IMG/VR virus record: IMGVR_UViG_3300028914_000003
Span: 32,001-96,000 of that record
Source of the DNA: a virus
Taxonomy: Duplodnaviria > Caudoviricetes
DNA length: 64,000 nucleotides
Reading direction: 5' to 3' (one strand)
This document shows positions 19,785-32,201 of the stretch, piece after piece (position 1 is the stretch's first letter; each line of letters starts with the position of its first letter). The position numbers were made by a program, and so were the translations under genes. A model generated the notes under the pieces. It saw only the letters and a program-made list of their open reading frames with translations. It searched no databases and was not told the origin of the DNA.

Positions 19785-20822
19785 ATTGACTGCCTCGCGG
19801 ACCGGCATAGTGCTTTAATAGCTTGATGATACACGAGCTGGGAAGCCCAGGCTTGGAGTCTGCCATCGAAGGTCTCGATGGCAAGACTCTCAAGCAGGGC
19901 TTATCCGAAAGCTCGAGTACTAAACAACTCCGCTCCACAATCTCATCGTGGCAGTATGCGCTGCCGCTGCTCATCATTCCTGACGCATGGCTTTATCAGG
20001 TCGATATCAACAGGTTAAGAACCTGGATGAAGACTGGGAATATCCCAGTCGGAATCCAGGTCTACTTTACCTGTTGGATAAATATGAATGCCTTGCAGCC
20101 ATCATACCACTGCGCTGTGGTCGTTCGTCCTGCTCTGCGGATACGGCATAGTGCTTTATCTCTCCGATGTCAAACAGTGTGAGCGAAGGCAGGCACGCCG
20201 TCGCTGGCATGGTAAGGCTTGCGACGGCGTGCCTGCCTTACGTTGAACACTGTTGATTAAATATCATCCGCCTTGCAGGATAGGGGCAGTATGCTCTGCC
20301 GTAGAAAGTGCTCCGTGCCCGGTGCGTTGGCTTTAGATGTTCGATGACAAGCTGGATGTCAGTACAGCTCATCAGATGCCCGCGGAGATAGTTCGCGGGC
20401 ATCAGATAGAGCTGGACTTCATAACATCCAGCTCGCTAAACATGGCACGTCTCACTGACCATAGCGGCGCACGCCGCTCTTTCCACCTCCCCGTGCTTGG
20501 TGTGTCGCTGTATCTCTCCGATGTTGCTAACCGGCTGGGGACGGTGATGCGCCTTCAGAGTACAGGTGATGCACCTGTATTCTGAGGCACTTCCCGTCAA
20601 TTGTTGCAGGTTAGCCTAAATCGTCGCACGTCCCGGTGGCTCATAGTCCACACTGACTAAGTGACTTCCGCCTTGCGGCCTGGCATAGGGCTATAATACT
20701 TCGATGATGACAGATCACGAAGGAGATCGGACCCTGACACCATAGGTTCAGGGTCCATCTCCGATAGAGTGATCTGTTATTAAATCTCTGCCGCCCTGCG
20801 GAAGCCATGCTGTATGCGCAGC
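19785..20822 (-). ncRNA. array of six structured RT-associated ncRNA units
   Basis: Units start (+ coordinates) at 19785, 19966, 20128, 20307, 20483, 20665. Each has a flanking inverted repeat with internal loop, a GC-[T/A]-TA...(C)GAT motif, a unique 74-90 nt hairpin, TAAA, and a hexaloop hairpin. Confidence 0.85.
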
Positions 20823-20832
20823 CTCTCATGCC

Positions 20833-21990
20833 TTAGCGGTTACGGCGCTTGTCGCACGCAGCCTCCTTCGCCTCGCGCCACTCCTGACGCTTCTTCTCGA
20901 TGTCGATATGGTTCTCCTCAATCATCTGCTTCATCAGGCCGAACAGGCGCCAGCCCTCGTCCCAGTACAGCTCGGCGGCAGCGTCAAGCATCTCCAGAGA
21001 GCTCTTGCCGCGCTCATAGAAGTCGTTGTCCTTGGGGAACTTCGCACCGTGGAAGCGCAGCAGGTTCTGCATGGTGAAGTAGGCACCGGCACCCTTGTAG
21101 GCATCCTTCCAGCGGGCGCACTGCTTGTACTTACACATCCACTCCTTGCCATAGGCCTGCTTCCAGAACACACGCACAGCCGTCTCCAACTGCACGGGTG
21201 TCTTCGCGTGCCTGATGCCGGTGAGTGCAATACGCAGCGGCTGGATGAGCTTCTTGTCGATATCCTCGACGAACACGCCCTTGCCGAAGCCATTCACGCG
21301 GATATAGGGCGCACCCTTGCAGTGGCGGATGTCCTGCTTCAGCGCCACCTCGCGCAGCTGCTTGATGAAGTCCTCGGCCATGGCCACGCAGACCTCCTTG
21401 TTGAACCAGCGGCTGCGCGCCTCGAAGTTCTCCATGTCCTTGCCGTACATCTTCGCCTGGGCATGCAGCTCGTCGATGAGCATCTTCCACTGATACTCGT
21501 AGCCGTGACGCTCCATCCACTCGGTGAAGCCGATGAGACGGCCGTGGTAGTCACGCTCAGACAGGCCGCGGAATACCTGCGACATCACCCAGCGGCGGAA
21601 CAGGTTCTTATTTGGTACGGTGCCACCGCCGATAATCTGACGGATGACAGGATCGTCCTCGTTCACCTGCACGGGGCGTCCGTCCTCGTCATAGGTCATC
21701 AGGCACTCGCTGCCGTCGAGGGCAGTCATCGAGAAGTACTTCTTCGTACCGATGCCTGCCTTGTTCAGCGCCTCGGCACGCTTCGACACGGGCAGATAGA
21801 CGGTGCCCAGTCCGGAGTCAGCACCCAGCACCGTCACGTTCTTGGCCGTGTGCTCATGCTCTGCCAGGATATCGAACTCCGCGCCGCACTCCGGGCATAC
21901 CACGCGGGTAGGATTGTTGGTCACTGTAGTGCTCTTCTTGGTGGTAGCACTCTTCTTGTCAGTCACTGTAGTTGCTTTCTTTGTTGTCAT
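20833..21990 (-). CDS. RT-associated hypothetical protein (N-terminal CPECG zinc-ribbon-like motif)
   Basis: 385-aa ORF embedded between array units; T/K-rich N-terminus then VVCPECGAEF. Confidence 0.8.
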   Translation of the reverse strand: MTTKKATTVTDKKSATTKKSTTVTNNPTRVVCPECGAEFDILAEHEHTAKNVTVLGADSGLGTVYLPVSKRAEALNKAGIGTKKYFSMTALDGSECLMTYDEDGRPVQVNEDDPVIRQIIGGGTVPNKNLFRRWVMSQVFRGLSERDYHGRLIGFTEWMERHGYEYQWKMLIDELHAQAKMYGKDMENFEARSRWFNKEVCVAMAEDFIKQLREVALKQDIRHCKGAPYIRVNGFGKGVFVEDIDKKLIQPLRIALTGIRHAKTPVQLETAVRVFWKQAYGKEWMCKYKQCARWKDAYKGAGAYFTMQNLLRFHGAKFPKDNDFYERGKSSLEMLDAAAELYWDEGWRLFGLMKQMIEENHIDIEKKRQEWREAKEAACDKRRNR

Positions 21991-22031
21991 AATTGTATGA
22001 ATTAAAGGGTTTATAAAAAAGTTATTGTTTG

Positions 22032-22317
22032 TCTATCGCCATTAACATGGCACATGGATATGCTCTGCTGATATAAATGCTTGATAAAAAAGCGTGTCTT
22101 ACTGCGATAGATAGTCAGGGTGTGCGCCCTGAAAATGCCTGCTCCTTGCGACAGAAGCACATGGCTATAGGTTGTCGATGATTGAGCTGTGGCGCCAGAA
22201 CAGGCGCCAGGATCCATCCACGGTGACAACCTGGACGGATCCAGGCGCCCGCTCTGGTTCAACCCAGCTCAACTAAACACGTTGTCGCCATAAGCAGGCG
22301 GGGCGGTGTGCGCCGCC
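22032..22317 (-). ncRNA. two further array units (22137-22317 complete; 22032-22132 lacks the long hairpin)
   Basis: GCCTGCT-cctt-GCGACA...TGTCGC-cata-AGCAGGC and TCTATCGC...GCGATAGA closing stems; TGTGCG hexaloops; GCACATGG motif. Confidence 0.85.
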
Positions 22318-22324
22318 AATAGTA

Positions 22325-23992
22325 TCACGCTGCCTCAGTCAGCGGCTCAGTCCACGACCGCAGCACCACGAGGTCGGTGTCGTTCTCGCTCTGCCAGAAC
22401 CAACCGCTACCTTCAGGCATCGTGAAACCCTGCAAGGCTTTCAGTAGCTCTCGCTCGGCCTGCTCACGGCTGATGCCATAGAGCATGTCGTCATCTGACA
22501 GCTCGCTTTCCGGCAGGGCATAGAACCGATGCGTCCGGTTCATCGTCTTCTCGCTCGGCACGGAGTGCTTGTAAGCAGCGTAAGCGGCTTCAAGCATCTC
22601 GATAGATGTCTGCTCCCCTCCCTCGGAGGGGTCGGGGGTGGCCTTGGGGTGGGTGGGCTGGATAATCGACAGCGAGCGCACCAGCGTGTCATACGCCGCA
22701 CGGCTCGTTCTTATCGCATTCTGCATACACCCCAGCGAGATATAGCCAGAGATATCGTCGCCCGTCTTGCGGCGGTTAGCCGAGACGTTGCGTCCCCTGC
22801 CTCTGACGATACATCCTACCTTGCCCTGCTTGTCATAGCCCAAGCCTCCGATTTTCCGCTTGCCGGTCTCGACGGCACGCAGGGCATCCATGACAAACGA
22901 GTTCATCGTGTCGATGTCCTCTCTGACATTGACGACACCGAGGATGCCCGTAGCCCACGAGTGACCCTGTCCGTCACCATGATAGAGATAGCGGTTCACC
23001 GAGTTCAGCGCCTTGGCAAATGAGATGCCATGATACCTGCCGTCCTTGCCTTTGACCTTGGCCTTGATAGTGCGTGTCTCTATCTCCTTCTGGAACTTCT
23101 TCAGCCGGCTGCTGCTCATAGACAAGCTCGCTCCCTTGATAGAGAAGCCGAGGAACTTGAACCAGTGCTTGTCATCCAGCCACTCGACTTTCTTCGGATT
23201 CAGGTGCATCTGCATCTTCTCCAGCTCCTCACTCAGCGCGTCCATAGCCTGCTTGGCATCAGGACCGATACACAGGATGTCGTCGCAATACCTGACGTAA
23301 TAGACATTCATCCCCGACAGCCGCTCGTCGATATGATAGAGTATCACGTCGGCCAGCCAGCTTGCCACGGCGCAGCCCTGCTTCAGGGAGCGGTACTTCT
23401 CCTTGACCACATGGTCGGTGTCGATATACAAGTCACTGTGGTAGTACTTCCTGAGCACATCCACCAGCGCGCTCTTGCCGCAGCGCTCCTCGACCATGTC
23501 AAATGCCTGGTCGATATACTCCGCGGGCACGGAGTCAAAGTACTTGCTCAAATCGGCCTTGAAGCCGATAGGGCCGTCAGCATCACGACTCGCCACGACG
23601 ATAGCCTGACTTGCCTCCTGCACCACCTTGCCGCAGCCGACACCCTTGAGGTACGACATACACCTCGGATGCACCTTGTCGCGGAACAGCTCGAAGAGCA
23701 TGTCATTCACGATACTCAGCACCACACGGTCGGCAGGCTCGTTGACACACACCTCGCGATACTCGCCCGGCGTGTCCTTCGGGATAAGGGCGATATGCGG
23801 CGGGGCAATCTCGTACTCTCCGGCCTTGATAGCCTTATAAATCTTGATGCGCACCTCCTCCTTACAGAGCTGGTACAGCCAGTTCTTAGGGATATCCTTC
23901 CCAACGCCCTTGGCGATAGCATACTCCCACCGCTCGGGCTCAAAGAACATCTGCAATAGTTTATCTTCCATAGTCGTAATCGTTTTAGTCAT
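22325..23992 (-). CDS. reverse transcriptase (group II-like / unclassified, YCDD)
   Basis: IPKDTPGEYR, DRVV, FKADLSKYFDSV, LKQGCAVASWLADVIL, YVRYCDDI, FKFLGFSI; extended C-terminus. Confidence 0.93.
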   Translation of the reverse strand: MTKTITTMEDKLLQMFFEPERWEYAIAKGVGKDIPKNWLYQLCKEEVRIKIYKAIKAGEYEIAPPHIALIPKDTPGEYREVCVNEPADRVVLSIVNDMLFELFRDKVHPRCMSYLKGVGCGKVVQEASQAIVVASRDADGPIGFKADLSKYFDSVPAEYIDQAFDMVEERCGKSALVDVLRKYYHSDLYIDTDHVVKEKYRSLKQGCAVASWLADVILYHIDERLSGMNVYYVRYCDDILCIGPDAKQAMDALSEELEKMQMHLNPKKVEWLDDKHWFKFLGFSIKGASLSMSSSRLKKFQKEIETRTIKAKVKGKDGRYHGISFAKALNSVNRYLYHGDGQGHSWATGILGVVNVREDIDTMNSFVMDALRAVETGKRKIGGLGYDKQGKVGCIVRGRGRNVSANRRKTGDDISGYISLGCMQNAIRTSRAAYDTLVRSLSIIQPTHPKATPDPSEGGEQTSIEMLEAAYAAYKHSVPSEKTMNRTHRFYALPESELSDDDMLYGISREQAERELLKALQGFTMPEGSGWFWQSENDTDLVVLRSWTEPLTEAA

Positions 23993-25006: not shown

Positions 25007-26050
25007 TCACGCCGCCATAGGCAGGGCCACAGGCCCCTCCATCGCCTTGCGGATAGCATCGTACTTCCGCAGGATATAGTTCGTGGCCGACTGCACCTGG
25101 TCGATGACCTTGGGGATAAACTCCTTGTCGCTCTTCAGCGCCTGCCGCCAGTTCTGCACATAGGCGATGTGGTTCTCATCCAGCAGCTTGCCGATGCCGA
25201 GCATCGAGCAGACGCAGGCCGACGACAGCTCCGCCACGAACTCCTCCATGGCATAGTCCTCGTCGCCGAAGTGTCCCTTCACCTCGCGCTTCACGTCGGG
25301 AGCGGTAGAGTGCGCCATCTCATGCAGCGCCGTGGCATAGAACCGCTCGTCGCCCAGGAACTGACTGCGCTCTGGCAGACAAATCTTGTCCTGCGTCGGC
25401 GAATAGTAGCACTCATGCCCCTTGAACTCAATCTTGCAGCGCCACTCGCCCTGCATGATCATACGCTCCAACACCTCGTCCACTGTGCCGTGTACATAGT
25501 CGTGCTCTGGCACTCTCGTCAAATTTTCCCACTTGTCAGGGAACTTCTCCCTGAAGTCGGTCTGCGATAGGTTGAACTCCGGAAAGGCACGCATAGAGAA
25601 ATACTTGCGGCACTCGTCCTTCTCCTCCTGCGACAGCGCGTCATACTCCTTAGCGGTCAGGCGGTTGCCGTCCTTGTCGTAAATCTTCGGGAGCATCTTC
25701 ACCACGGGGAAACTGCTCTCGAACTGCGGCATACCGTTGTCCTTGAACTTCGGCATACCCTGCTCGTCCATAGCCAGGTTTAGGCTCAGCCCCATCTCCG
25801 TCAGCTGCTCGAACGTCAGGAACATAGGCACCTCCCACCCCTTCACGGCGCACAGCAGCGTCAGGAAGAAGTCGTTCATCCCTCGATAGGGCTTCTTATA
25901 CTTGTAGTTGCAAGGCGACCCGTGTCTCGGTGCCACCCACGGCTTCTGATAGTTCGCGCCCTCCATCGTGTCGAGCGCCGTAGCGAACAACTCCGCATAC
26001 TTTTCCTTCTGCTTGTCGTTCATCGTGAATTGTTTCTTTGCCATAGTCAC
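25007..26050 (-). CDS. ardC: ArdC-like antirestriction protein (ssDNA-binding N-terminus plus zincin-like domain)
   Basis: YQKPW...KPYRGMN...FLTFEQL; CYYSPTQDKICLP...FYATALHEMAHST...YAMEEFVAEL...YVQNW. Confidence 0.85.
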   Translation of the reverse strand: MTMAKKQFTMNDKQKEKYAELFATALDTMEGANYQKPWVAPRHGSPCNYKYKKPYRGMNDFFLTLLCAVKGWEVPMFLTFEQLTEMGLSLNLAMDEQGMPKFKDNGMPQFESSFPVVKMLPKIYDKDGNRLTAKEYDALSQEEKDECRKYFSMRAFPEFNLSQTDFREKFPDKWENLTRVPEHDYVHGTVDEVLERMIMQGEWRCKIEFKGHECYYSPTQDKICLPERSQFLGDERFYATALHEMAHSTAPDVKREVKGHFGDEDYAMEEFVAELSSACVCSMLGIGKLLDENHIAYVQNWRQALKSDKEFIPKVIDQVQSATNYILRKYDAIRKAMEGPVALPMAA

Positions 26051-31568: not shown

Positions 31569-32201
31569 TTAGCTGTTCACATAGTTACCAACAGGCGTGT
31601 CAATAGTCACGTCCTCAAATTGCAGGCGATAGTCCGCAGGCTCGCCGTCGAAGAAGTGGTTGATAGCCACGACGCACTGCTCGGCGGTAACATCATGCTC
31701 GTACTCCTTGCTCGCCTCATAGAGGGAGTTTACATAATCCTCGTGCCCCTGCATGCCGTCTACGAACTCCGACAGCGGCAGGCACACGCCACGCACGTCG
31801 ATAGTCTTCCAGTTGTCGCCCTTATAGGTGTATCCCAAGAGCGAAATCTGCTTCTGTCCCATGTCGTCAAGTTCGACAGCATAGAAGTCGATAGCCTCTG
31901 GCTGGCGCACGGGCTTGAACCGCGTCATGTCGCAAAGGTGCTCCCGCAGATAGTCCAGCAGCTCCTCGTCCGTAGGATCCCTGCGTATAAACTCCGAGTC
32001 GGAATAAAAGAAGATTTCCTCGTCGAGCCTCGTGGCGTACTTGTCGCCCAGCTCCATTCTGCGCTCCAGCACGTCCCATAGCGCAACGTCAGCCACGTCC
32101 ACGCTCCGATAGCTCTCGCCATCGAACGTCGGCAGGCTCGTGATGTCGATAGTGCGAACGATATAGTCCACACCATTCAATGTGATAGTCGATTTTTGCA
32201 T
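31569..32201 (-). CDS. acidic hypothetical protein
   Basis: 210-aa ORF in operon. Confidence 0.7.
   Translation of the reverse strand: MQKSTITLNGVDYIVRTIDITSLPTFDGESYRSVDVADVALWDVLERRMELGDKYATRLDEEIFFYSDSEFIRRDPTDEELLDYLREHLCDMTRFKPVRQPEAIDFYAVELDDMGQKQISLLGYTYKGDNWKTIDVRGVCLPLSEFVDGMQGHEDYVNSLYEASKEYEHDVTAEQCVVAINHFFDGEPADYRLQFEDVTIDTPVGNYVNS

Follow-up and report, generated by a model that had tools for sequence, protein, structure and literature searches.

The question raised by this locus is whether, in each unit of a phage-borne array of structured non-coding RNA (ncRNA), the loop of a 5' hairpin pairs with a short segment near the 3' end to form a pseudoknot, and what such a pseudoknot would do for the reverse transcriptase (RT) encoded next to it. 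The DNA analysed, hereafter the window, is a stretch of 64,000 nucleotides (nt) covering positions 32,001 to 96,000 of the IMG/VR virus record IMGVR_UViG_3300028914_000003 (Duplodnaviria; Caudoviricetes). The RT belongs to the UG27 family, and eight ncRNA units lie downstream of its gene on the minus strand. A preliminary description of the window had listed eight loop/partner pairs that change together from unit to unit. We examined these pairs by coordinate in the window and by covariation in related loci, and we find that the pseudoknot is real, position-specific and sequence-free.

Loop-to-3'-strand pairing in the eight units

The eight units are given below in their 5' to 3' order on the minus strand; E denotes the E-value of a unit against the covariance model described in the next section.

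22138..22317, minus strand: unit 1, 180 nt; 5' hairpin 22302-22317; motif AUC-N7-UANAG 22165-22179; loop GCACA 22307-22311, partner UGUGC 22157-22161
22031..22130, minus strand: unit 2, 100 nt; loop GCACA 22121-22125, partner UGUGC 22050-22054; E 4.6e-4 (filters off)
20665..20822, minus strand: unit 3, 158 nt; loop GCAUA 20813-20817, partner UAUGC 20683-20687; motif 20691-20705; E 4e-14, outside the training set
20483..20658, minus strand: unit 4, 176 nt; loop GUGUG 20649-20653, partner CACAC 20500-20504; motif 20508-20522; weak match, E 0.038 (filters off)
20307..20477, minus strand: unit 5, 171 nt; loop GUGCG 20468-20472, partner CGCAC 20322-20326, register +1; motif 20331-20345
20129..20300, minus strand: unit 6, 172 nt; loop GCAUA 20290-20294, partner UAUGC 20146-20150; motif 20154-20168
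19966..20121, minus strand: unit 7, 156 nt; loop GCGCA 20111-20115, partner UGCGU 19983-19987 (one G-U); motif 19991-20005; E 8e-9, outside the training set
19788..19965, minus strand: unit 8, 178 nt; loop GCAUA 19955-19959, partner UAUGC 19805-19809; motif 19813-19827

When loops and partners were extracted by coordinate, nucleotides 2-6 of the hexaloop of the 5' hairpin (P1) were complementary to the 5-mer on the 3' strand in all eight units, just as had been described. The complement of these loop nucleotides is unique or clearly the best in each unit, and all pairs are Watson-Crick save the one G-U in unit 7. Counted from the A of AUC, the partner 5-mer begins at a distance of 18 nt in every unit but unit 5, where the distance is 19 nt. 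We also checked for a pseudoknot longer than 5 base pairs (bp), and found that the flanking loop nucleotides (C or A) and the flanking partner nucleotides (C or A) never pair.

The five loop/partner types present in the window change together, and of the 40,320 ways in which the loops can be assigned to the partners, only 12 preserve all 40 pairs. The permutation baseline is nevertheless high (33/40 pairs), because every loop in the window reads G-Y-R-Y-R, and the window alone is therefore suggestive but not overwhelming. The same composition favours an explanation without any RNA pairing, in which GYRYR and YRYRY are separate protein-binding motifs that correspond through composition or shared ancestry, or in which the complementarity serves on the other strand or in DNA. 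It is also in keeping with this explanation that the minimum-energy folds show no strand asymmetry (-578 versus -569 kcal/mol, summed).

Covariation across the UG27 family

The family set comprised 57 IMG/VR loci, the RTs of which share 50-74% identity with the window RT. Four window units served to build a covariance model, whose structure was set by hand and contained nested helices only and no pseudoknot information; it was limited to these four units and set by hand because MAFFT alignments of seven or five units misaligned UUUA and the closing-stem registers. The model recovers two full-length window units that lay outside its training set (units 3 and 7), and it finds 133 units (108 distinct) in the window and the 57 loci, none of them antisense to the RT and most of them downstream of it. 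Among the 108 distinct units, 97.1% of the pseudoknot cells are paired, a level that none of 500 shuffles reaches. Four of the five pseudoknot pairs show changes on both sides (59 cells), and sliding the partner by 1-3 columns lowers the pairing to 5-58%. The nested helices covary as well (93.8% paired), which is weaker evidence, as the alignment is fitted to these helices.

Since many units are orthologous and stand in the same array order, ancestry would be counted in such a test, and a model-independent test was therefore run. It was anchored on the regular expression AUC-N7-UANAG, accepted any upstream hairpin with a 4-bp stem and a hexaloop, and asked for a perfect Watson-Crick complement of the loop in the 10 nt after the motif. 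A perfect Watson-Crick pseudoknot was found in 104 of 260 units, compared with a mean of 14 and a maximum of 27 under partner swapping and about 6 under letter shuffling. The passing units use 24 distinct 5-mers, some of which do not start with G (UUGUG, UUGCC, AUGCG, ACGUA), and 101 of the 104 lie at offset 18 or 19, with offsets 15-20 allowed.

Orthologous units inflate the counts, which lends something to the explanation without pairing, but it is contradicted by the variety of perfectly complementary 5-mers at a fixed offset, by the fall in matches upon partner swapping and by the collapse of the slid registers. In addition, according to the text of a bioRxiv preprint on UG27 (10.64898/2026.09.22.753630, 24 September 2026), the complementary DNA (cDNA) spans only the central hairpin, and hence the pseudoknot elements never become DNA product. 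The covariation thus effectively excludes a reading in which loop and partner do not pair.

The pseudoknot types follow the same order in the window and in three loci with RTs 70-74% identical to that of the window (L001, L006, L042): GCACA, accessory gene, GCAUA, GUGUG, GUGCG, GCAUA, GCGCA, GCAUA. This conserved order across phages implies that the units are orthologous and long-lived. Invariant positions of the family alignment are U342, C343, U351, A354 and loop G8, and the first pseudoknot pair is an invariant G-C among the covariance-model matches. At L037:6700-7100 (plus strand), the model missed units in which the P1 stem is very short (CC/GG) and the pseudoknot is UCACA/UGUGA, with U-A as its first pair.

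Unit anatomy, functional strand and locus context

From 5' to 3' on the minus strand, a unit consists of hairpin P1, a linker of 4-10 nt, an outer closing stem, a purine-rich internal loop and an inner closing stem, followed by UUUA, a long variable hairpin, a single-stranded AUC-N7-UANAG segment, 3 nt, the pseudoknot 5-mer, 2-4 nt and the 3' arms of the closing stem. P1 has a stem of 4-5 bp and a 6-nt loop in all eight units. Minimum-energy folds give the 5' hairpin, the closing stem and the central hairpin in most units; that of unit 5 favours a tetraloop, so one stem pair must open for the hexaloop to form. Every one of the eight units has UUYA on the 5' side of the central hairpin, within unit positions 34-54; in the family alignment its two U columns are 97-99% U and its A column is 93% A. 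On the 3' side of that hairpin, AUCNNNNNNNUANAG is exact in seven of the eight. A search of Rfam 15, which does not include the published UG27 unit model, returned only spurious, sub-threshold microRNA-like matches to the long hairpins; the covariance model built from four window units serves as a stand-in for the published one.

The internal loops of the closing stem had been described as mostly purine-rich on the minus strand, and this was borne out: 45 of 49 nucleotides are purines in the seven long units of the window (a hand count by eye on the minus-strand sequence), and five of the six family columns are 82-94% purine.

Unit 2 carries the degenerate motif AUCAGCAGAGCAUAU, with AUC-N7-CAUAU in place of UANAG. 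It keeps P1, the pseudoknot and an 8-bp closing stem, the last without an internal loop, and because its UUUA is separated from AUC by a single nucleotide, it lacks the central hairpin that would be copied. Four other loci (L016, L024, L047, L056) likewise have short units, of about 107-111 nt, directly after the RT.

The central hairpins vary in contigs of a related strain from sequencing run X6. In unit 6 (central hairpin 20186-20239), double substitutions pair 20191 A>T with 20234 T>A and 20194 C>G with 20231 G>C. These are compensatory changes in a perfect 19-bp stem, which argues that the stem of the payload hairpin is maintained by selection. In unit 4 (20524-20626), one contig fits the scaffold on both sides while 99 other letters replace 101, so that the payload hairpin looks swapped with the scaffold retained. 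Among the variants listed for the DNA contigs of the runs, none falls inside pseudoknot positions, an absence that carries no weight as evidence.

The preliminary description took the minus (RT-sense) strand to be the functional RNA, and this agrees with three lines of evidence: the array lies inside the minus-strand RT operon; AUC-N7-UANAG occurs in the 57 loci 342 times in the RT sense (296 of them downstream of the RT) and 46 times antisense; and the motifs match those published in the RNA sense. That the internal loop is purine-rich on both of its sides is likewise in keeping with the RNA sense. Less can be made of its further argument that a G-U pair works only on this strand. The G-U pair in unit 7 is true, but a single pair is thin evidence, and with a fixed register the family has 10 G-U cells in the pseudoknot against 10 A-C cells. 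With a flexible register, about four types rely on G-U only as against one A-C type, which would be G-U on the other strand. In the nested helices, G-U outnumbers A-C by 88 to 61, which is not decisive for the strand.

The locus sits in a complete virus record of 132,635 bp with direct terminal repeats and 100% estimated completeness. The array and the RT share one minus-strand operon with gaps of 7-40 nt between genes or units. Its two protein genes are as follows.

22325..23992, minus strand: UG27 reverse transcriptase, 555 amino acids (aa), YCDD at aa 235; PADLOC RT_UG27 E 7e-198; Pfam RVT_1 E 2e-20
20833..21990, minus strand: large accessory protein (cluster 337; bORF in the preprint), 385 aa, inside the array; PADLOC RTas337 E 3.8e-114

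The RT_UG27 match spans profile positions 1-420 of 420. Within the same protein, the small accessory family RTas346 matches the C-terminal aa 462-550 (window 22325-22660, minus strand; PADLOC, E 5e-22), and RT and small accessory protein are hence a single fused protein in this locus. With the PADLOC DRT models, both UG27-associated clusters are therefore present, 337 as its own open reading frame (ORF) and 346 as the RT fusion. The fusion apparently also occurs in L001-L009 and L042, where tblastn matches reach residue ~548; in most other loci the match ends at residue ~441, which implies a separate small accessory gene. The large accessory protein has no match in Pfam, PHROGs or NCBIfam. The best match of the RT is UG27, and retron models matched only at E 2e-10 against a cutoff of 235 bits; the ncRNA units, moreover, lie downstream of the RT, unlike the upstream msr-msd of retrons. 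The locus is a UG27 (class 2 UG/Abi) RT system composed of an RT-small accessory fusion, a large accessory protein and an RNA array.

Among sequencing runs, bovine-gut metagenomes are the best DNA sources for the phage, and no RNA run is listed for it; a search of GenBank phages for near-identical sequence gave no match. About 1 kb upstream of the RT and on the same strand, the ORF at 25007-26050 (minus strand) has an ArdC N-terminal domain and a zincin-like metallopeptidase domain, which makes it a candidate anti-restriction gene near the UG27 system.

Proposed role of the pseudoknot in UG27 systems

UG27, its two associated clusters (337/346) and its phage location were defined by Mestre et al. 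(2022, PMC9226505), who also proposed a structured ncRNA. By its text, the preprint (10.64898/2026.09.22.753630) describes UG27 ncRNA arrays whose units, 82,314 in its alignment, combine a basal hairpin and a pseudoknot with the UUYA and AUCNNNNNNNUANAG motifs and peak in length at 149 and 167 nt, as well as a class of ~135-nt units without the pseudoknot. It also reports that five UG27 systems in E. coli produced RT-dependent single-stranded DNAs (ssDNAs) of 50-100 nt, that their synthesis requires the RT and both accessory proteins, and that the cDNAs map to the central hairpins, starting at the AUC of AUCNNNNNNNUANAG and ending after UUYA; the biological role of the ssDNA is given there as unknown. 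Going by this text rather than by its figures, we infer that the published pseudoknot is the loop-to-3'-strand pairing seen here. Our search for further literature on UG27 function or priming found nothing. Array and pseudoknot had thus already been described for UG27; the window is a correct rediscovery that adds one more confirmed example to a known kind of element. What is added here is an independent covariation test made without a language model, the exact pairing register, and an RT-small accessory fusion variant from a ruminant phage.

The window locus shares with the arrays of the preprint, so far as its text describes them, the RT family, both accessory families, the phage location, tandem units of ~150-180 nt that are diverse in sequence and conserved in structure, the basal hairpin and pseudoknot, UUYA, AUCNNNNNNNUANAG, a variable central hairpin, and extra units in neighbouring intergenic regions. 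It differs in several respects. The preprint's text gives the systems three proteins and makes no mention of a fusion, whereas in the window the RT carries the small accessory protein at its C-terminus; the active site of the window RT is YCDD, not YSDD. The unit lengths here are 156-180 nt plus one of 100 nt, compared with a published major class of ~149-167 nt, and unit 2 has no central hairpin, unlike the units described in that text. Finally, the systems reported as tested come from human gut strains and have been shown to make cDNA, whereas the window phage is from bovine gut and its locus is known from sequence alone.

The register defines an H-type pseudoknot: the partner 5-mer starts 3 nt after UANAG, and of the two junctions between P1 and the pseudoknot helix, one spans 1 nt and the other 0 nt. 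Such a 1-nt/0-nt loop arrangement is compatible with the classical rules for H-type pseudoknots. It would allow P1 and the pseudoknot helix to stack into a rod of ~10 bp. Immediately downstream of the initiation motif, this would tether the 3' strand of the large internal loop, ~27 nt that would otherwise be single-stranded. The pseudoknot and the conserved purine-rich loop of the closing stem may then jointly form a compact core for recognition by the RT complex, one that offers the enzyme its AUC start site and fixes where the template begins; the pseudoknot sequence itself could change freely provided that the two strands still pair. The eight units probably act as the ncRNA array of a phage UG27 RT system in which the pseudoknot helps to build the RT-recognised core and to present the AUC start.

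Several points weigh against this proposal. The role of the pseudoknot in RT binding or initiation is something that we infer; many of the 108 family sequences are orthologous, and their cell counts overstate the number of independent events; and units 2 and 4 match the small covariance model only weakly, their features being visible by eye. Furthermore, the ~135-nt UG27 clade lacks the 5' hairpin and the pseudoknot, as in L045 (one of seven units scored), and therefore the pseudoknot is not universally required for UG27 chemistry. At L045:6400-8950 (plus strand), units stand ~135 nt apart with AUC-N7-UANAG and neither a 5' hairpin nor a pseudoknot, which fits the pseudoknot-less class in the preprint's text.

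A pseudoknot could instead serve the management of the array, either by keeping the units of a polycistronic transcript folding independently (as an insulator or address code) or by marking boundaries for nuclease processing. P1 does lie exactly at the unit boundaries, with gaps of 0-7 nt, and all neighbours within the six-unit block differ in their pseudoknot sequence. Identical neighbours in related arrays are slightly fewer than expected (7/37 versus 10.1), but this depletion is not significant (P = 0.12), and avoidance of a shared pseudoknot sequence by neighbouring units is thus unsupported. Moreover, identical neighbours exist, namely units 1 and 2 in the window and others in L009 and L017, and with G-U allowed several loops can pair with the partners of other units. 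We therefore regard array management as a rather unlikely purpose of the pseudoknot.

A retron-like mechanism has also to be weighed, in which the 2'-OH of a G in the purine loops of the closing stem, or for example in UANAG, primes a branched RNA-DNA molecule and the pseudoknot holds primer and template together. The layout does resemble retron msr-msd RNA, where an RT likewise turns a hairpin bounded by an inverted-repeat closing stem into short hairpin ssDNA and where a structured scaffold carries a variable payload. The purine-rich loops are conserved and so is the G of UANAG (95%), the text of the preprint gives no priming mode, and its ssDNA capture retrieved a branched product as well, that of the Ec86 retron. 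Against this, that text reports no branch evidence, the pseudoknot partner and its flanking nucleotides separate the AUC initiation site from the 3' arm of the closing stem, and UG27 is a class 2 UG/Abi RT and not a retron RT. The two accessory proteins that the preprint's text reports as required also leave room for protein priming or de novo initiation. Retrons differ further in having one ncRNA upstream of the RT, priming from the 2'-OH of a branching G, no such pseudoknot and an RT of another clade, whereas UG27 has many units downstream of the RT and needs two accessory proteins. Retron-like priming is accordingly very unlikely. The preliminary description had offered the closing-stem loops as candidates for a priming or branching G, but nothing points there: by the preprint's text the cDNA starts at AUC, on the far side of the pseudoknot, and no branch is reported.

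Two more speculative roles were considered together, and we think it quite unlikely that either holds: the pseudoknot might clamp the invariant UANAG so that the 2'-OH of its conserved G primes at AUC, 12 nt upstream, or the 5-mer might be a per-unit address against misfolding between units. If true, priming from the G of UANAG would be a new retron-like mode of intramolecular priming in a non-retron RT.

For the proposed role in RT recognition and template start, two known systems offer comparisons. DRT2 (UG2), another class 2 UG/Abi RT, likewise has a structured ncRNA dedicated to it as template, and according to the text of the preprint (10.64898/2026.09.22.753630) its solved structure includes a pseudoknot. 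DRT2 differs in that a single ncRNA upstream of the RT yields long, concatemeric, protein-encoding cDNA by a rolling-circle mode with a role in host defence, whereas UG27 is phage-encoded and makes short hairpin cDNAs from many units. Telomerase RNA provides a functional analogy only: a pseudoknot near the template start helps to build the RT-binding catalytic core and to set the template boundaries, but there is no homology, and a single template is copied repeatedly in a eukaryotic ribonucleoprotein.

UG27 systems are common in gut phages, and in them an array of RNA scaffolds gives rise to a set of short ssDNA hairpins. Of all parts of the scaffold, the pseudoknot, which directly adjoins the mapped initiation motif, is the most flexible in sequence while being constrained in structure. 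This position and flexibility make it an obvious handle for tests of RT recognition and for the re-engineering of units, for example for multiplexed ssDNA production.

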